The notes under the pieces are model-generated. The model was not told the DNA's origin, ran no database searches, and saw nothing but the letters and a program-made list of their open reading frames with translations. The position numbers and the translations under genes were made by a program. Source: Terriglobia bacterium (GTDB lineage Bacteria > Acidobacteriota > Terriglobia > 20CM-2-55-15). From it: 64,000 nucleotides of DNA. Shown in pieces: positions 1 to 11,242 of this stretch. Each line of letters starts with the position of its first letter. The stretch's first letter is position 1. The stretch spans positions 32,001 to 96,000 of the forward strand of contig CBDCLE010000019.1 in assembly GCA_965218585.1 (NCBI GenBank), written 5' to 3'.

Positions 1-1589
1 CATCGGAAGCACGCGACACGGCTTCTGAACGACATTCTGAGGGGCGAACGGCCCCGACGGCAACCGCGCGGCCGGGTCCGTCGATACGGCCCCGCGGTGC
101 AGGCCGCCCTGATCGCGGCCTGGCGCACAGTCAATGATGTCTGTGGCAAACGGCTCGTTCCGTTTCTGCCGGAGCTGATCCCGACCATGGAGCGTCACGG
201 GCATCTGTCATTGTCTGATAAAACGCGGGCGGATCTGCTTGAGCTGAGCGCCGCCACGGCTGATCGGATCTTCCGTCAATTCCGATTCGATCATCGACCG
301 CACGGCAAGACCACCACCAAGTCCGGACAGTTACTCAAACACCGCGTTCCGATTCGCACATTCGCCGACTGGGCGGACACGCGGCCGGGATTCATGGAAG
401 CGGACTTGGTTGCACACTGCGGCGGGAACTCGGAAGGCCCTTTCCTCCACACCCTGGTACTGACCGACGTGGCGACCGGCTGGACCGAATGTCTGGCGTT
501 GCTACGGCGTACGGAGGCGGACATTCTGCAGGCGCTCACGACGGCACGGCAGATCCTTCCGTTTCAGCTTGTCGGCCTGGACACGGATAACGGTTCCGAG
601 TTCATGAACTACGGACTCCTCGCCTACTGCGAGCGTGAAACGATTCAATTCACCCGAGGCCGGGCGCGCCGGAAGAACGACCAGTGCTTCGTCGAACAGA
701 AGAACGGCTCGATCGTCCGCCAATTGGTCGGCTACGACCGCTACGAAGGCTCACTGGCATACAGGCAGCTTGCCGAGCTCTACCGAGTGGTCCGGCTCTA
801 CGTGAACTTCTTCCAGCCGTCCATGAAGCTCACGACGAAGACTCGCGATGGATCCCGGGTGACGAAACGCTACGATATCGCGCAAACACCCTATCAACGG
901 CTCTCGAATTCGGATGCGCTCGACCCGGAGGTTCGCGTTCGCCTTGCTGCGATTTATGAACGTTCGGATCCGGTCGATCTCCTACGACAGCTTGAGAAAC
1001 TCCAGGATGCATTCTGGAGACATGCGAAGGAACTGGCCTCTCCCACGCTAACGGACGACATCGTGCGCGCCGCCCTTGTGTCCCCGAACTGCGACGCAGA
1101 TGCAGACCGAGCCCCGATTGAGGCGGAACTCCCCGATCCCGGCTTCGAGCAACGAATCACGCGTCGGTATCGCAAAACACGGAAACAACCTGTGCCCCAC
1201 ATCTGGCGTACTCGCCCGGACCCGTTCGACGGCGTCTGGGAGGAGATGCGGTCATGGCTTGAATCCGATCCCGGGCGAACATCAAAGTCGCTGTTGCTTG
1301 AGCTTCAGCAGCGGCGCCCGGGACGTTACCCCAACGGTCAGTTACGGACCCTGCAGCGGCGCGTGCGCGAATGGCGGCGTCAGATTCTGGAGACTTTCGA
1401 TGGCGAGTGGCTCGAACTGGATCGGGTCCGCCCGGCTTCAGCATCTGCGGGCGACGGGGGCTGTGGAAAAGGCGGTCGCCCCACAGCCTCGACGGCGGGA
1501 AGAACTCTCCCGTTTGACCGGTCGTTCGGTAACATTTCTAATGAGGCAACAACCCTCAGTTCGGTAACATTTTTAAATGAGGCAATACG
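1..1589 (+). mobile_element. Right part of an ISNCY-like insertion sequence
   Basis: Transposase followed by two direct repeats GTTCGGTAACATTT..AATGAGGCAA (1524-1549, 1559-1585) ending ...GAGGCAATACG. Confidence 0.7.
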
Positions 1590-1616
1590 AGAAGGAATTC
1601 TGATTGACGTTGGACA

Positions 1617-2198
<582 letters not shown>

Positions 2199-2238
2199 GG
2201 CGATTACTCACTTCACACGCTCAAATCTGCATAGAGAT

Positions 2239-2287
2239 TTGCCACTAACTCCAGAAGCCCCTAGAATTATTACACTCTAGGGGCTTC
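2239..2287 (+). promoter_or_regulatory. Sigma70-type promoter of the tRNA, overlapped by a 12-bp inverted repeat
   Basis: TTGCCA(2239-2244)-17 bp-TAGAAT(2262-2267). IR GAAGCCCCTAGA(2254-2265)/TCTAGGGGCTTC(2276-2287). Confidence 0.7.
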
Positions 2288-2292
2288 ATTTT

Positions 2293-2378
2293 GGAGAGGT
2301 GGCTGAGAGGTTTAAAGCGGGTGACTTCTAATCACTTGTGGGCACAATCCACCGTGGGTTCGAATCCCACCCTCTCCT
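2293..2378 (+). tRNA. tRNA with serine-type body and long variable arm but anticodon TCT (Arg, AGA)
   Basis: Acceptor GGAGAGG/CCTCTCC. D-arm GCTG-AGAGGTTTA-AAGC. Anticodon arm GGTGA-CTTCTAA-TCACT (TCT at 2327-2329). Variable arm GTGGG-CACAA-TCCAC. T-arm GTGGG-TTCGAAT-CCCAC. Discriminator T, CCA not encoded. Confidence 0.92.
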
Positions 2379-2419
2379 CTAAGCTGCTCTCCCCAAATTC
2401 AATTTTAGTACGACTATCA

Positions 2420-3175
2420 TCACCGAAAGACTGTCATAGGGAAGGTCGAAAACATGAGGCCATCAAAGAATAATCCTATAGCACTTACCGGAGAATCACA
2501 GAACAATGTACCCCTCCTAATTATAAATTCATCCTCTGGAAGACTCAGTATCTCATCTATGAATAGAGTATGACTGCTCTTTGATCCAATAGAAAACTCA
2601 AAGAAGTATTCTTCTTTGTAGAATACTTCTATTGAGCAATTTGCATCTCTATTTTGGTCATTAGCAATTCCCACAGCCATACGCTGCCCAATCTCTACCC
2701 ACTGGTTAATCCACAATGTAAGAAATTCTCCTGGTTGGGAGGAAAAGACAGCTGCTATTCCATAGGGAAAATAGTTAGCGTCATAGAACCCATATTGTAT
2801 GAATGCTGCAACAGGAGCAGTACATTCCAAAGTAGCATATCCAGTCTCTATGTCACTACCAGCACCGGTAGTTCTTACCAACATATTTGGATTATTCTCT
2901 GGAAAAGTAAAAGCTGCCCCATCATCAATTATAGAGAATACCGGACTAGGAACAAGCCGATCTGAGCTTATCCCATAGAGAGTATAAGCACATCGAGGAT
3001 TGTTCGGATAGCTAGTATTGGTAAGGTATAAATGGGAGAAGAAGTGTGCCCCATCCCCAAACTCCCCATCTGCTATCACAGGAAATACATGATAGGTTTT
3101 GGATGTCTCATCTACGTTCTGTCCTAGCGCCGAAGCAGAAACCAACAGAAAAGATAACAAAGTTAGGAATTTCAT
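2420..3175 (-). CDS. Hypothetical secreted protein (transposon passenger)
   Basis: Intact ORF of about 251 aa. GGAG upstream of ATG 3175, signal peptide MKFLTLLSFLLVSASALG, four Cys. Confidence 0.75.
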   Translation of the reverse strand: MKFLTLLSFLLVSASALGQNVDETSKTYHVFPVIADGEFGDGAHFFSHLYLTNTSYPNNPRCAYTLYGISSDRLVPSPVFSIIDDGAAFTFPENNPNMLVRTTGAGSDIETGYATLECTAPVAAFIQYGFYDANYFPYGIAAVFSSQPGEFLTLWINQWVEIGQRMAVGIANDQNRDANCSIEVFYKEEYFFEFSIGSKSSHTLFIDEILSLPEDEFIIRRGTLFCDSPVSAIGLFFDGLMFSTFPMTVFR

Positions 3176-3361
3176 GGAAGGCTCCAATTGAAATCCTATG
3201 CTGAGGGAATGGTACAGAAGAAAGCTATCAGGTAAGATACCGTCTAGGCTAACTCTTCCTCAGCATAGGAGGGTTAGCTCAGAACCCGCTCGGTGACTGT
3301 AACACTGGGCGGGTTCGTCCCAATCCCCTCATAATATCACACATGAGGTTTGCTCAATGAC

Positions 3362-3390
3362 TTGACTTTCACGACAAATCGTGCTCTAAT
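3362..3390 (+). promoter_or_regulatory. Sigma70-type promoter upstream of the putative ncRNA
   Basis: TTGACT(3362-3367)-17 bp-TCTAAT(3385-3390) with a TG extended -10. CACGA/TCGTG palindrome in the spacer. Confidence 0.55.
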
Positions 3391-3405
3391 ACAAGCGGTG
3401 CGGTG

Positions 3406-3624
3406 CATGAATAGAATGAACCAGTCATATCACAAATTCTGAGAGAAAACAGCTCTCAGAAAAGGAGGTGCCATGTGAACGGATTTGGCGGACTACATGA
3501 ACCAACTCCTATAGTGTAGATGAGACGGACACAAGTGCAGGCATTTCTTAGGTTTGGTGGTTACTAATCAATGCCCTGTCCGCCTCATCAATCACCGAGA
3601 CATGACTGGTTCATTCTATTCATG
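3406..3624 (+). ncRNA. Putative structured non-coding RNA
   Basis: Perfect 23-bp terminal IR (3406-3428/3602-3624) encloses a short hairpin (3437-3461), AAAGGAGGTG-CC-ATG-TGA, and a long hairpin (3519-3589). No long ORF. Confidence 0.55.
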
Positions 3625-3714
3625 AATCCTACATAGCAAATTTTCCCCCTTGCAATTTTCGTCCTTCATGTGCTAAAATCAGGTATAGGAAACGACGTAA
3701 GGAGGAAAGAAAAA

Positions 3715-3936
3715 ATGCAAGTTGGACCATCTATCTTATTGCGTGAAATACCACCCGATGGGATTCGTCTGATTCTCCAAAGTACAAATCAACCCCACGA
3801 CATCCCAGGGAAACGTCTCCTTTCAAAAGCTGAGGCTGCTCTTTTAGCTTTTGGGCTTCTTCTGGAGTTAGGGCACACCACGGACAATCAGATTCTTGAT
3901 TCTTTTCATTGGGCTGAGAAATTTCTGCAGCAATAA
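3715..3936 (+). CDS. Small hypothetical protein (73 aa)
   Basis: Promoter TTGCAA-18 bp-TAAAAT (3650-3679), SD AAGGAGG, ATG at 3715. Confidence 0.6.
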   Translation: MQVGPSILLREIPPDGIRLILQSTNQPHDIPGKRLLSKAEAALLAFGLLLELGHTTDNQILDSFHWAEKFLQQ

Positions 3937-4009
3937 CCGAAGAGTGCGTCAAGTTAGTTGACATTTGCTTACCTCCAAGATAAGACGTTGGCAGTCAAGG
4001 AAAAGAGAA

Positions 4010-4228
4010 ATGCAATTCAGCATTGATCGCGTTCAAGGCTTAGTAAATAGAGTTGAACTTGCCGGATCGACTGGAAAGAACAAATTATTGTGCTTGAATT
4101 TTCACCTCGAACCACTACAGCTTCAGTATCTCCCCTTTCAACCTGAAGTCCTCCTTCTAATTGCACCCAACGAGGCACAGAAGCTATCCGACGATCTGCT
4201 AAAGCTTCTAATTCCGCATCAGAGGTAG
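4010..4228 (+). CDS. Small hypothetical protein (72 aa)
   Basis: TTGACA at 3958-3963, AAGGA upstream of ATG 4010. Stop codon abuts the right TIR. Confidence 0.55.
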   Translation: MQFSIDRVQGLVNRVELAGSTGKNKLLCLNFHLEPLQLQYLPFQPEVLLLIAPNEAQKLSDDLLKLLIPHQR

Positions 4229-4251
4229 AGCGTGTCAAGTGAGTAATCGCC

Positions 4252-4273
4252 GAATTTTCGTGTCGAGTTTCAT
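4252..4273 (-). pseudogene. sdhA: First seven codons of sdhA (MKLDTKI)
   Basis: ATG at 4273 just downstream of sdhC. Joins the 1617-2198 fragment in frame across the TSD. Confidence 0.85.
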
Positions 4274-4281
4274 CAGTTGAT

Positions 4282-4944
4282 TCAGCTCACTACGCCGATC
4301 AGCATGGCGATCGGGATGGATATGTAGCCCAGGACGATGAGGGAGCTGACGACGACCGATCCGTGCCGAATCAGCGGATCATATCTGGAGTGATTGAGGC
4401 CCAGGGACTGAAACATGCTCCAGATCCCATGTCCCATATGAAGTCCGAGGCTTCCCACGGCTGCTATATAAAATATCGCTACAGGCCACTCCTGGAATCC
4501 TGTGACTACGTTTCGATAAACACTTTCCGCGTTGAAGTTCGGGTACGACGGATGAACCGTGCCGAACGTAAAGTGCAATAGATGGTAAATCACGAAAAGT
4601 GCGATGATGGGCCCGCTCCAAACCATCGTGCGAGACGCGTAACTCGCGTCCCTGTATTTGTGGCGTTGGTAGGGCACAGGGCGGGCCGATCGGTTCCGAG
4701 TCGCAAGATGCACTGCGGCCAGGACGTGAAAGCCGACCGCGCTAACAAGGGAGATTCGGGCGGTCCAGAGGAACTGTGGCGTTCCCTTCAGCAGCTTTGC
4801 CCAAGCGTCGAGGGTTTCCGGACCTGCGAAGATCTGGAGATTTCCGGCCAGGTGCCCAATGATGAACCCGAAAAGGACAATGCCGGTCGCGACCACCACG
4901 ATCTTCTTGCCGAGGGATGAACGATAAAAGCCGGGAATCCACAT
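4282..4944 (-). CDS. sdhC: Succinate dehydrogenase cytochrome b subunit
   Basis: SSLGKK..ATG, GHLAGNL, YASRTM, HLLHFT, HMGHGIWSMFQSLG; five TM helices; upstream of sdhA. Confidence 0.9.
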   Translation of the reverse strand: MWIPGFYRSSLGKKIVVVATGIVLFGFIIGHLAGNLQIFAGPETLDAWAKLLKGTPQFLWTARISLVSAVGFHVLAAVHLATRNRSARPVPYQRHKYRDASYASRTMVWSGPIIALFVIYHLLHFTFGTVHPSYPNFNAESVYRNVVTGFQEWPVAIFYIAAVGSLGLHMGHGIWSMFQSLGLNHSRYDPLIRHGSVVVSSLIVLGYISIPIAMLIGVVS

Positions 4945-9685: not shown

Positions 9686-11242
9686 ACGCTATAAGGAAGG
9701 ACGCCCCTTTGTCGGCTGTTGCCAGGAGGAAAATCTCCCGACAACAACCCATTCAACGTAGCTGCGTTGAATTCAAAGACAAAGGAGCACGTAAATGAAA
9801 CAGGCCAAGTATATCGGCATGGATGTGCACCAGGCAACGACGGTGGTGATGGTCTTAAACGCAGACGGCAAACTGGTCTGGGAAAAGATCGTAGAGACCC
9901 AGGCCGGGCCAATCATTGATTTGCTGGAGAGTCTGAGTGGTGAGCTGCACGTGACGTTTGAAGAAACCACGCAGGCCGAATGGCTCTACAACGTGGTCCG
10001 GGGATATGTGAGCGAAGTGATCGTGTGTGATCCCAGACGGAACAAACTGCTCAGTGACGGGTCCAAGACCGACCGGGTGGATGCCCTGAAACTGGCCGAG
10101 CTGCTCCGGGCCGGATGGCTGCGGTCGGTCTACCACGGGCACGATGCGACGCGGACGTTGAAAGAACTGGTCCGCGGATATGAGACCTTGACCCTGGATA
10201 CGCAGCGGACGATGGTTCGGATCAAGGCAATGTATCGAGGACGTGGGATCCGGACGCCGGGCCACGGCGTCTACCTCCCATCGCAGCGGGAACACTGGAT
10301 CGAACAGCTCGCCAATACCGGTGCACGGCGGCGTACCGGATGGTTGTATGAGGAGCTGGATCATCTGAGAGGGTTAAGAAAAAAAGCGAAGCTGGCGATG
10401 TTAACCGAGAGCTGCAAGCATCGTGCGGTGGGGATATTGCAGACGATTCCCCAGTTGGGACCGATACGTTGCGCCTTGATTGTAGCGACGGGGGACACCC
10501 CGCATCGATTTCGAACCAAACGCCAGCTCTGGAACTACAGCGGTCTGGCCGTGGCAATGCACATGAGTGCGGAGTATGAGCAGGAAGGGAGTCGTGTGGT
10601 ACGTCGTCGAAAGCCGATCGCCACGCGGGGACTGAACCGCAACGGCAACCGACGTTTGAAAGATGTGTTCATCGGGGCGGCGACCGGAGGCATGGGGGCC
10701 GAACCTTGGAAAAGCTACCTGGAGGGGCTCCAGAAAGACGGCAAGCGTAAGGAGATGGCTCGGCTGACACTGGCGAGGAAGATTGCAGCGACCGCACTGA
10801 AGATGTGGAAGAAAGGAGACACGTTTAACGCAAAGAAACTGAACTTGGCGACATAGCCGTTTCCAGACTTCTGCCGACAGCGCGAGGCATTCGACCGCTC
10901 GTCGTCGGTGAGGCGTCGGAACGGTAGGGTCGAGGGTGAGGATCCGATACGCGGTTGGCACACAGCGCTTGCTGAAGGCCCATGTAATACTCTATCCCCC
11001 CTCGCACGACCTGGAAAAGCGATAGCCCTCGAGGCTCAGATAGAACCGTGGTCGGCAATCACGACCCCTTTGCGCTTTTCAGTTTCTCGAAACCACACCA
11101 CGTTGTGATGAGTGATCGACTTCTCTGCGATGCCGGATCAACAGTTCGTCTCAACGGAGACAGGGGCTGGCTGCCACGACAGTGTTGGGTCCGGTGGTCC
11201 GCTCGGCGGGGACGTGTTTCTCTTGACAGCCCCTTCCATAGA
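9686..11242 (+). mobile_element. IS110 family element, IS1111-like (ends approximate)
   Basis: Subterminal IR-like AAGGAAGG(9693)/CCTTCCAT(11232-11239). TTGACA at the right end and TATAAG at the left end. Long 3' non-coding end. Confidence 0.7.
9795..10856 (+). CDS. IS110 family DEDD transposase/recombinase
   Basis: YIGMDVH, TFEE, KTDRVDA, TIPQLGPI, ARKIA. SD AAGGAG. Confidence 0.92.
   Translation: MKQAKYIGMDVHQATTVVMVLNADGKLVWEKIVETQAGPIIDLLESLSGELHVTFEETTQAEWLYNVVRGYVSEVIVCDPRRNKLLSDGSKTDRVDALKLAELLRAGWLRSVYHGHDATRTLKELVRGYETLTLDTQRTMVRIKAMYRGRGIRTPGHGVYLPSQREHWIEQLANTGARRRTGWLYEELDHLRGLRKKAKLAMLTESCKHRAVGILQTIPQLGPIRCALIVATGDTPHRFRTKRQLWNYSGLAVAMHMSAEYEQEGSRVVRRRKPIATRGLNRNGNRRLKDVFIGAATGGMGAEPWKSYLEGLQKDGKRKEMARLTLARKIAATALKMWKKGDTFNAKKLNLAT

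Follow-up and report, generated by a model that had tools for sequence, protein, structure and literature searches.

A serine-type class-II tRNA with a UCU anticodon on a transposed cassette in an acidobacterium, a candidate AGA missense tRNA

Natural tRNAs that join the identity elements of one amino acid to the anticodon of another are, to our knowledge, rare, the known bacterial cases being the allo-tRNAs and the tRNA-ProX of actinomycetes. The latter is accompanied by a dedicated synthetase. Acidobacterial allo-tRNAs with leucine anticodons insert serine at leucine codons in E. coli, and Mukai et al., who treat G73 or U73 together with a long variable arm as the serine signature, list individual allo-tRNAs and ‘irregular 7/5’ tRNAs in polycistrons in their supplement (PMC5389517). 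A non-serine anticodon on a tRNA-Ser body is possible because SerRS is blind to the anticodon; variants of this kind arise spontaneously, and in Ascoidea tRNA-Ser(CAG) coexists with the cognate tRNA, giving stochastic decoding (PMC11415595). SerRS recognition is described as depending importantly on G1:C72, G2:C71 and C11:G24, with G73 of ‘moderate importance’ and contributing to Ser identity in E. coli cells in vivo, whereas the main determinant of E. coli ArgRS is A20, to which C35 and U36 are added, with U73 appearing among the bacterial Arg elements in table 1 of the same source (PMC9976931).

The window, i.e. the whole stretch of 64,000 nucleotides analysed here, holds a single tRNA gene by ARAGORN (2293-2379, + strand, anticodon tct), and Rfam matches RF00005 at full length to 2293-2378 (+), scoring 62.1 bits where the gathering threshold is 29 (E 4.7e-11).

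2293..2378, + strand: class-II 7/5 tRNA with a Ser-type body, anticodon UCU, U20, U73 and no encoded CCA (ARAGORN, Rfam, isotype models, Logan contigs)

By direct reading the acceptor stem GGAGAGG/CCUCUCC consists of seven Watson-Crick pairs, G1:C72, G2:C71 and A3:U70 among them, and is followed by U8 and G9, a 3-bp D stem (G10:C25, C11:G24, U12:A23) and an 11-nt D loop, GAGAGGUUUAA, that places U at 20, 20a and 20b. The anticodon stem GGUGA/UCACU (5 bp, one G:U) carries the loop CUUCUAA, with TCT at 2327-2329, the 17-nt variable region contains the arm GUGGG-CACAA-UCCAC (5 bp, one G:U) with C48 next to it, and the T arm is GUGGG-UUCGAAU-CCCAC. The discriminator is U at 2378 and CCA is absent from the gene, which is normal here, as CCA is encoded in 2/51 host tRNA genes. 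All stems are paired and all conserved tertiary bases are in place, and ARAGORN, Rfam and the direct reading agree with the 7/5 cloverleaf, U20, UCU and U73 described in the first-pass annotation. The 8/4 fold of an allo-tRNA is impossible, since its eighth pair would be U8:C. The same annotation had proposed a check of T2327 in reads, and Logan contigs from two runs (2006-2393 and 2130-2394) carry T at this position with no other letter. Depth is only ∼3-5x, and the three runs examined belong to one study and are possibly the assembly's own source, so that the agreement excludes a consensus slip and is not independent replication; a private sequencing error at 2327 is rejected as far as such data allow. 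In these three runs no contig covered the right junction or some parts of the cassette, and among the runs listed as holding the stretch none is recorded as RNA; neither point is counted as evidence.

Isotype models built from acidobacterial tRNAs, on which every control tRNA scored best with its own model, assign the window tRNA to serine (Ser 84.3, Tyr 58.3 and Leu 37.8 bits), in agreement with the serine-type body claimed earlier, with a Ser score that is somewhat inflated because the models derive from host relatives with which the acceptor and T arms are shared. The Tyr value is the ordinary cross-score of a tRNA-Ser, a genuine host tRNA-Ser scoring 58.5 bits on the Tyr model. The long variable arm and the D-arm layout of tRNA-Ser (3-bp D stem, inserted 20a and 20b) are present, the D arm aligns column for column with those of 12 acidobacterial tRNA-Ser, and G1:C72, G2:C71 and C11:G24, the SerRS elements, are all retained. 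Over positions 56-85 the gene is 100% identical to the host tRNA-Ser(CGA), with identical acceptor stem and T arm, and its exact D-arm block recurs in 28 metagenomic tRNAs, 26 of which are tRNA-Ser. Departures from tRNA-Ser are found at the discriminator, U73 in place of the G73 of all 12 aligned acidobacterial tRNA-Ser, and in the anticodon, UCU rather than NGA or GCU; one natural tRNA-Ser(GCU), at locus L159, likewise carries U73 and shares the acceptor and D arm. On the arginine side, C35 and U36 are present, whereas A20, found in 5/5 host tRNA-Arg and correctly reported missing at first pass, is replaced by U20, and the body is not of the class-I, short-variable-loop type of tRNA-Arg. Overall identity is 76.7% to host tRNA-Ser(CGA), 71.7% to tRNA-Ser(GCU) and 53.4% to tRNA-Arg(UCU). 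Thus, the earlier description of the gene as one base from tRNA-Ser(GCU) holds for the anticodon and fails for the body, for which no GCU progenitor was found, and an origin from the host tRNA-Ser(GCU) is rejected at an identity of only 71.7%.

The tRNA is foreign DNA, moved in as cargo of a transposed, low-GC cassette of 2,053 bp with 24-nt inverted ends and an 8-bp target duplication, which interrupts sdhA at codons 6-8. The features of the cassette and its flanks are as follows.

1618..2190, - strand: rest of the sdhA fragment, FAD_binding_2; likeness to relatives ends at 1618, beside an rve-type insertion sequence
2191..2198, no strand: target-site duplication, left copy GAATTTTC, 8 bp (9 with the adjoining G), present once at the empty site in two same-genus genomes
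2199..2222, no strand: left terminal inverted repeat GGCGATTACTCACTTCACACGCTC; the 32-nt repeat pair that includes the duplication is 91% complementary
2239..2267, + strand: sigma-70-like promoter match TTGCCA-17 nt-TAGAAT, ending 26 nt 5′ of the tRNA, 10/12 positions
2254..2287, no strand: perfect 12-bp hairpin GAAGCCCCTAGA/TCTAGGGGCTTC followed by ATTTT, just 5′ of the tRNA and overlapping the -10 hexamer (inverted-repeat search)
2420..3187, - strand: cargo ORF (255 aa), its N terminus resembling a signal peptide; no named family in family scans
3406..3624 (3406-3431 and 3599-3624), no strand: internal 26-nt inverted repeat, 96% complementary, no Rfam match
3715..3936, + strand: ORF of 73 aa with AAGGAGG upstream, no family match
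4010..4228, + strand: ORF of 72 aa, unlike the 73-aa ORF, with an upstream site similar to AAGGAGG, no family match
4228..4251, no strand: right terminal inverted repeat, complementary to the left at 23/24 positions
4252..4259, no strand: target-site duplication, right copy GAATTTTC (junction comparison)
4260..4274, - strand: first five codons of sdhA (ATG AAA CTC GAC ACG), severed by the cassette (comparison with relatives)
4282..4944, - strand: intact sdhC, succinate dehydrogenase cytochrome b subunit, in the host flank, 77-81% identical to same-genus proteins

The site is empty and uninterrupted in 3/3 same-genus genomes that hold an sdhC homologue, which together with the inverted ends and the target duplication points to a transposable, probably non-autonomous cassette. 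An island integrated in a resident tRNA gene is rejected, as the inverted ends enclose the tRNA and no tRNA separates sdhC from sdhA in relatives. The insertion looks recent, given the perfect duplication and ends that match at 23/24 positions, so that the absence of decay is weak evidence either way. The cassette is single copy, neither a second copy nor matching ends being found in the 95%-complete assembly, and its inverted-end pattern gave 0 stretches in viral contigs. Scans of the cassette ORFs with Pfam, NCBIfam, PADLOC and PHROGs gave no credible match, with no toxin-antitoxin, defence, phage or transposase family detected, and the 255-aa ORF has three metagenomic homologues at 31-33% identity. 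At a permissive E-value, Rfam returned for 2000-4400 the tRNA, noise and one sub-threshold match, an antisense Plastid-psbI-rps4 of 42 bits (gathering score 68).

The host itself reads AGA as arginine, as had been supposed at first pass: 14/20 aligned AGA sites are R and 1/20 is S, which rejects reassignment in the host, and a standard tRNA-Arg(UCU) with A20 is retained. With AGA at ∼4.9 per 1000 host codons by a crude ORF proxy, efficient mistranslation would be costly. The first-pass annotation had also expected AGA-rich foreign or phage genes to be hit harder than the GC-rich host; since the tRNA rides a foreign low-GC cassette, the idea of a host weapon turned on such invaders is reversed, and the cassette ORFs are in fact AGR-richer than the host, the 255-aa cargo ORF having 4 AGR among its 8 Arg codons. 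A serine meaning of AGA in the cassette donor was considered by aligning this ORF with its three homologues (AGA sites S/A/P and Q/A/A, AGG sites V/V/V and S/S/T) and was set aside, the sites being too few and the identity too low.

Judged from sequence, we see about an even chance that the gene came in by horizontal transfer and encodes an AGA missense tRNA which SerRS can charge and which causes low-level Arg-to-Ser substitution. On this model the non-autonomous cassette would have brought into sdhA of the acidobacterium a cargo tRNA that unites the SerRS-type shape and most SerRS sequence elements with the anticodon UCU. Transcription would start from the cassette's own promoter-like site, RNase P would cut the 5′ end, and CCA would be added post-transcriptionally, as for 49/51 host tRNA genes. 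Host SerRS would then attach serine, probably less efficiently than to a G73 tRNA, EF-Tu would deliver the Ser-charged tRNA, and AGA, and more weakly AGG, would be decoded against the resident A20-bearing tRNA-Arg(UCU). The predicted outcome, whatever benefit it may bring, is Arg-to-Ser substitution at a low level proteome-wide, with the genetic code unchanged. Against this reading stand U73 in place of G73, the presence of C35 and U36, the lack of any homologue by which conservation of UCU could be judged, the likely cost to a host that itself uses AGA, the use of AGA by one phage carrier of a similar tRNA (L258, below), and the promoter match, which is at chance level: sigma-70-like sites show no enrichment in the region (3 found versus 3.7 expected), so that 2239..2267 is a consensus match only.

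It is unlikely, with an appreciable residual probability, that the gene is an inert passenger, i.e. an ordinary tRNA-Ser (GCU or other) from a low-GC donor whose UCU is recent and unselected, and which is silent or too weak to matter and will decay. Consistent with this are the single copy in one metagenome-derived genome at ∼3-5x coverage, the position among insertion sequences in an sdhA that is broken twice, the chance-level promoter and the spontaneous origin of tRNA-Ser anticodon variants under an anticodon-blind SerRS (PMC11415595). The lack of homologues points the same way: exact-block scans of genome and metagenome collections gave no close homologue with UCU or GCU, and the UCU-retaining homologues that the first-pass annotation had named as a check did not appear; the anticodon-arm block alone gave 3 stretches in genome contigs, none homologous, and 0 in metagenome contigs. 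A generic class-II UCU pattern run over 401 genomes of the phylum returned the genome itself and one non-tRNA chance match, the cassette had no match among plasmids, and the whole cassette matched five phage records, all through generic tRNA-Ser similarity. On the other hand, the stem pairing is complete and the tertiary bases are conserved, albeit in an insertion so recent that intactness says little in either direction, and the only GCU or UGA version found that shares the anticodon stem and body is a tRNA-Ser(UGA) of a Caldisericota metagenome-assembled genome, at 75.6% identity. Moreover, 7/5 Ser-type tRNA(UCU) genes are not unique to the window, as two more are present in unrelated phage records, one of them in a cultured phage of which two isolates retain the gene.

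The first of these records is Pseudomonas phage inbricus (NC_054970, 68163-68253), where the gene is publicly annotated as tRNA-Arg, by anticodon only; at the level of titles and abstract openings, no paper was found that discusses it. Across the 76 CDS of that record there are 8 AGA and 16 AGG, 24 AGR in 21,843 codons, and such avoidance was not accepted as evidence for a weapon, since it may mirror the codon usage of the phage's host. The second, L258, is a predicted viral contig with the Ser-type tRNA(UCU) ∼90 nt downstream of an IS1595 transposase. AGA is the commonest Arg codon of the L258 locus (60/120), and of the 11 AGA codons in the transposase 9 fall at majority Arg sites, 5 of them at sites that are Arg in at least 118/119 homologues, which rejects a serine meaning of AGA in this carrier. 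Serine charging would therefore damage the L258 carrier and is less safe to assume for such tRNAs. A further case, L172, lies beside an ORF judged transposase-like by eye.

Such observations bear on an arginine or dual identity, in which ArgRS would charge the tRNA fully or partly through C35 and U36 without A20, making it a long-arm tRNA-Arg(UCU) that serves AGA-richer foreign genes, as thought for phage tRNA-Arg(UCU). Both anticodon determinants are present, the L258 carrier is AGA-heavy with AGA as Arg, the cassette ORFs exceed the host in AGR, the inbricus gene is named tRNA-Arg, and phage contigs commonly hold tRNA(UCU) genes with a long arm, 20 of them in 19/119 viral loci. However, 18/20 of these long phage tRNAs have A after G18G19 and none exceeds 55.4 bits on the Ser model, which marks them as a different, Arg-type class, whereas in the window tRNA positions 20, 20a and 20b are all U, without the A20 that is the main E. 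coli ArgRS determinant (PMC9976931) and is kept throughout the host tRNA-Arg. With a body that scores 84.3 bits as Ser and is only 53.4% identical to the host tRNA-Arg(UCU), we regard this identity as improbable; were the tRNA nevertheless Arg-charged, an ArgRS that accepts an A20-less, long-arm substrate would also be informative. A non-translational role in the service of the mobile element is very improbable; such an RNA might be regulatory or linked to a toxin-antitoxin system, serve as a processing signal or be targeted by recombination, functions suggested for the inactive allo-tRNA(UAU). In its favour, allo-tRNAs lie near toxin-antitoxin loci and transposon genes with several translationally inactive (PMC5389517), and 3/3 metagenomic or genomic cases here adjoin mobile-element features (the cassette, L258 and L172). 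Against it, the fold is fully canonical without the stem defects of inactive allo-tRNAs, the cassette showed no toxin-antitoxin, defence or phage family, and the adjacency comes from three cases in a sampling that is not unbiased.

Returning to the missense reading, a broader proposal, suggested by the cassette, L258 and inbricus, that mobile elements repeatedly carry canonical-fold Ser-identity tRNA(UCU) as deliberate Arg-to-Ser mistranslators, is in our view doubtful. If true, such a tRNA could degrade the proteome of a host or competitor while the element takes over, or could serve in addiction or exclusion, the AGR avoidance of inbricus would leave that carrier nearly immune, and public naming as tRNA-Arg from the anticodon would hide the class. 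More generally, phage genes labelled tRNA-Arg illustrate that anticodon-based annotation can hide Ser-type tRNAs. The conflict between identity and anticodon is seen here in an ordinary 7/5 tRNA-Ser fold carried by a transposable cassette, and a cassette-borne tRNA would be the simplest route to sudden codon ambiguity in a cell. The question is open to experiment, either in a phage that is in culture together with its host or with allo-tRNA reporter assays.

In its inverted ends, target duplication, passengers and lack of a detected transposase, the cassette resembles what we take to be mobile insertion cassettes or related non-autonomous elements, from which it differs in being single copy, in that the assembly yielded no partner transposase, and in its tRNA passenger. 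Among tRNAs, the allo-tRNAs of Acidobacteria (Mukai et al. 2017, PMC5389517) share with the window tRNA an acidobacterial host, a long variable arm, G73 or U73, an inferred serine identity with non-serine anticodons that include AGA/AGG readers, and an association with DNA of mobile or toxin-antitoxin type. They are set apart by an 8/4 or 9/3 branch, a long Sec-like D stem closed by a tetraloop and a lengthened anticodon stem (PMC5389517), compared with the plain 7/5 branch, 3-bp D stem, 11-nt loop and 5-bp anticodon stem of the window tRNA; no 7/5 bacterial Ser-type tRNA(UCU) was found in the literature searched, although the supplement of Mukai et al. might list related 7/5 species. Metazoan mitochondrial tRNA-Ser(UCU) is likewise a serine tRNA for AGA/AGG, truncated and without a long variable arm, in an organellar code with AGR reassigned (PMC4615739; PMC9976931). 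tRNA-ProX of Streptomyces and Kitasatospora is also a natural bacterial tRNA with one identity and the anticodon of another, although its identity is proline, its anticodons are those of Ala, Asn and Thr, and its hosts are soil Actinomycetes (PMC11415595). The yeast tRNA-Ser(CAG) of the CUG-Ser clades and human tRNA-Ser variants, like the window tRNA, place a non-serine anticodon on a canonical tRNA-Ser body, and differ in being eukaryotic, chromosomal and vertically inherited, the yeast ones tied to codon reassignment (PMC11415595), whereas the window tRNA arrived on a mobile cassette with no reassignment. Similar in form is the tRNA of inbricus (NC_054970) and Achromobacter phage Axy13 (MK962632), annotated tRNA-Arg, which is likewise a 7/5 class-II tRNA with the loop CUUCUAA, a tRNA-Ser-like D arm without A20, a Ser score of 71.1 against 51.6 bits for Tyr, and a mobile carrier. 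It differs in G73, an encoded CCA, other acceptor, anticodon and variable stems (68.8% identity to the window tRNA), and a carrier that is a lytic N4-like phage with few AGR codons.

ARAGORN called a single tRNA gene in the 64-kb window (2293-2379 (+), anticodon tct), and 2293-2378 matches the Rfam tRNA model over its full length (62.1 bits, gathering score 29, E 4.7e-11). Its sequence gives a standard 7/5 cloverleaf, with the following elements.

Elements of the window tRNA, 2293-2378 (+)
Acceptor stem: GGAGAGG/CCUCUCC
Linker bases: U8, G9
D stem: 3 bp, including C11:G24
D loop: GAGAGGUUUAA, with U at positions 20, 20a and 20b
Anticodon arm: stem GGUGA/UCACU, loop CUUCUAA
Variable arm: 5-bp stem, followed by C48
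T arm: GUGGG-UUCGAAU-CCCAC
3' end: discriminator U, CCA not encoded

An 8/4 fold is ruled out, as it would require a U:C pair. The structural details given in the first-pass annotation are all found in the sequence, and T2327, the first anticodon base, is variant-free in independent Logan contigs from two of three metagenome runs (∼3-5x depth, in a single study whose runs are possibly the assembly's own source); these contigs also span the sdhA-to-tRNA junction. Antisense to the 3' half of the gene, window 2328-2378 (-) matches the Rfam Plastid-psbI-rps4 3'UTR family at 42 bits, below the gathering score of 68. Plastid trnS genes adjoin psbI and rps4, and if this family overlaps antisense trnS, the match would just reflect the likeness of the 3' half to plastid-type tRNA-Ser.

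The host genome (4.55 Mb in 26 contigs, 57% GC), whose SdhC has named relatives in Silvibacterium, Bryobacteraceae and 'Acidobacteriia' (53-55% identity), holds 51 tRNA genes, among them a normal 74-nt tRNA-Arg(UCU), tRNA-Arg(CCU), and tRNA-Ser with GCU, UGA, GGA and CGA anticodons. In its acceptor stem and T arm the window tRNA is identical to host tRNA-Ser(CGA); over the whole gene its identity is 76.7% to tRNA-Ser(CGA), 71.7% to tRNA-Ser(GCU) and 53.4% to tRNA-Arg(UCU). Covariance models for Ser, Leu and Tyr, built on 12, 20 and 17 acidobacterial tRNA sequences respectively, gave the scores below.

Covariance model scores (bits)
Window tRNA: Ser 84.3, Tyr 58.3, Leu 37.8
Host tRNA-Ser(CGA): Ser 108.5, Tyr 58.5, Leu 17.2
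Host tRNA-Tyr: Ser 67.5, Tyr 114.8, Leu 53.7
Host tRNA-Leu(CAG): Ser 50.3, Tyr 45.5, Leu 106.9

As had been proposed, the Ser model is the best for the window tRNA despite its arginine anticodon, so its body is serine-type; its Tyr score is the usual tRNA-Ser cross-score. The ArgRS element A20, present in all five host tRNA-Arg genes, is indeed missing, and the gene departs from tRNA-Arg in both A20 and class, and from the tRNA-Ser family in G73 and the serine anticodon. The absence of an encoded CCA is normal for this host, as just 2 of its 51 tRNA genes encode it.

The host code is normal, and the earlier assignment of AGA to arginine holds: once wrong-frame shadow ORFs had been taken out, the residues aligned in relatives with 20 AGA codons of 16 host ORFs were 14 R, 3 K, 2 Q and 1 S, similar to CGA (R at 33 of 50 sites). 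By a crude proxy, AGA amounts to ∼4.9 per 1000 codons in long host ORFs. In E. coli, SerRS takes no account of the anticodon and relies on the long arm, the tertiary shape, G1:C72 and G2:C71, with G73 of moderate weight in vivo; the main ArgRS determinant is A20, with C35 and U/G36; and acidobacterial allo-tRNAs bearing leucine anticodons show serine insertion (PMC9976931, PMC5389517). In light of these determinants and of such insertion, the most likely reading, to which we give an even chance, is that the window tRNA is a candidate AGA missense tRNA chargeable by SerRS. SerRS would charge it with serine, and it would compete with the resident tRNA-Arg(UCU) at AGA.

The gene lies at the margin of a 38-46% GC stretch in the 57% GC genome, on a 2,053-bp segment with the following features.

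The 2,053-bp segment (window coordinates)
2191-2198 and 4252-4259: direct duplication GAATTTTC flanking the segment
2199-2222 and 4228-4251: inverted repeats forming its ends, agreeing at 23 of 24 positions
3406-3431 and 3599-3624: inverted repeat of 26 nt (arms 96% complementary) around 167 nt
Signal-peptide ORF of 255 aa; three metagenomic homologues (31-33%)
Two short ORFs, each preceded by a good ribosome-binding site

Of four genomes of the same genus that were searched, three have a homologue of sdhC; in all three sdhA follows it directly, and the octamer GAATTTTC occurs once, within sdhA codons 6-8. Given this uninterrupted arrangement, the inverted ends and the duplication, the segment is a transposed cassette that interrupted sdhA. 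A second break in sdhA, at about 1618, is due to an rve-type insertion sequence, and the sdh operon of the window is probably dead. The cassette contains no transposase, its ORFs found no credible match in Pfam, NCBIfam, PADLOC or PHROGs, and its internal inverted repeat, which has no Rfam match, could represent a structured RNA or a miniature element nested in the cassette. It occurs once in the assembly, is absent from the plasmid collection searched, and drew only generic tRNA-Ser matches from the phage collection. A promoter-like TTGCCA-17-TAGAAT ends 26 nt 5' of the tRNA, such matches being at chance level in the region. The neighbourhood is an insertion hotspot (1-1845 (+), 1556-2293 (-), 9795-10856 (+)), where the truncated sdhA adjoins an rve-type transposase ORF, and 5.5 kb further along there is a transposase of the IS110 family (DEDD_Tnp_IS110 and Transposase_20). 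The idea of a host tRNA that hits AGA-rich invaders is not supported, since the gene belongs to the foreign, AGR-richer DNA and not to the host side.

Homologues keeping UCU, to which the first-pass annotation had looked, were not found by BLAST or exact blocks. The BLAST matches in 60 relatives were all ordinary tRNA-Ser, either full-length at 70-75% or confined to the common 30-nt 3' part. An exact 20-base block (3' side of the D stem plus anticodon arm, anticodon free) had no related match among 185,579 species genomes, its only tRNA matches being two tRNA-Ser(UGA) from two metagenome-assembled genomes (of Caldisericota and unclassified, respectively), and a similar block with an NCU anticodon had no match in the metagenome collection. 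Across 401 genomes of the phylum, a structural pattern for any long-arm UCU tRNA, from anticodon loop to T loop, hit only the window's own genome and one non-tRNA chance match. The D-arm block alone is common (30 stretches with 28 tRNA calls: 26 tRNA-Ser, one tRNA-Cys and one long tRNA with a CCA anticodon), and nearly all its contigs are of 20-41% GC, which would fit a low-GC donor. One of these, a tRNA-Ser(GCU) at contig locus L159:604-698 (-) with an encoded CCA and the acceptor stem 5' strand and D arm of the window tRNA, is a natural serine tRNA with U73; its contig (31% GC) also carries tRNA-Gln and two tRNA-Leu genes. That the window tRNA is an inert passenger whose anticodon changed recently we consider unlikely, if the foremost of the alternatives.

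In viral contigs, the same long-arm UCU pattern recovered at least 20 long tRNA(UCU) genes, 83-96 nt in length and spread over 19 of 119 loci (within L031-L126, e.g. L044:1684-1769 and L066:1046-1130). Among the matches listed, 18 of 20 have A after G18G19 and the highest Ser-model score is 55.4 bits; these look like tRNAs of arginine type whose arms resemble those of class II, distinct from the window tRNA. To our knowledge, tRNA-Arg is seldom described with such arms. When the pattern had to include both CUUCUAA and a D arm of the tRNA-Ser type, two genuine parallels emerged in phage records.

Ser-type tRNA(UCU) parallels
L243, Pseudomonas phage inbricus (cultured, N4-like): Ser 71.1, Tyr 51.6 bits, Leu no match; C20, G73, CCA
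L258, predicted viral contig, 34% GC: Ser 66.9, Tyr 47.0 bits, Leu no match; U20, G73, CCA

The inbricus gene, annotated tRNA-Arg, recurs in Achromobacter phage Axy13 (99.2% identical). AGA and AGG are so few in the 76 annotated CDS of inbricus (8 and 16 of 21,843 codons) that a serine-inserting tRNA(UCU) would hardly affect this phage; the low usage may be codon mimicry only. A second inbricus tRNA is irregular too (68442-68536, or L243:1148-1242; 95 nt, annotated Leu(CAA)): it reaches 41.7 bits on the Leu model, and its 26.6 bits on the Rfam tRNA model fall short of the gathering score. At L258, AGA is the commonest arginine codon (60 of 120), and ∼90 nt upstream of the tRNA lies an IS1595 transposase whose gene uses AGA 11 times. 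Arginine is the majority residue at 9 of these 11 sites and is found in at least 118 of 119 homologues at five, with serine in at most 11 of 119 at any site. AGA is read as arginine here, and a serine-charged UCU tRNA would damage the neighbouring transposase. At least one Ser-type tRNA(UCU) thus sits where serine charging looks harmful, which makes it more probable that such tRNAs are silent, weapons or charged by ArgRS. Arginine or dual charging of the window tRNA, which lacks A20, gains from this context and is nevertheless improbable. A non-translational role linked to the mobile element is the least plausible reading and very unlikely.

Other odd tRNAs were noticed. A second class-II gene in the host (G000:C22:178573-178661 (+), L236:6001-6089; 89 nt) has the alanine anticodon UGC, C33, U73 and C3:G70, so that the AlaRS signal G3:U70 is absent, and scores 50.4 bits on the Ser model. 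It has homologues in 2 of 40 relatives, G013 (UGC, 90% identity) and G004 (GGC, 79%), at L240:1498-1586 (-) and L241:1497-1584 (+), apparently forming a small family of tRNAs with long arms and alanine anticodons. A third (G000:C4:105179-105271 (-), L237:6003-6092; 93 nt, anticodon UAG for the Leu codon CUA) could have either an acceptor stem of 8 bp or G73 and a 7/5 fold, is weak on all three models (46.0, 34.4 and 30.0 bits) and has no homologue among the 40 relatives. An 81-nt ARAGORN 'tRNA-Gly(ccc)' (G000:C2:158469-158549 (+)) has mismatches in its stems and a T arm of irregular form; it is probably either a false positive or the remains of a gene. On a 66% GC metagenome contig, L172:1661-1753 (+) is a Ser-type long-arm tRNA with G73 and the Trp anticodon CCA that scores 74.6 bits on the Ser model; a putative transposase-like ORF (604-1500, judged by eye) lies ∼160 nt upstream of it.

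The literature text searched holds no description of a bacterial or phage tRNA-Ser body of canonical fold with UCU; irregular 7/5 species may be among those listed in the supplements of Mukai et al. The window tRNA, a single copy, offers a clean and testable case, for which one parallel (L258) urges caution. It is predicted to work like an allo-tRNA, but is rejected as a member of that class because it lacks all three defining features, namely the 8/4 or 9/3 branch, the long D stem and the extended anticodon stem.
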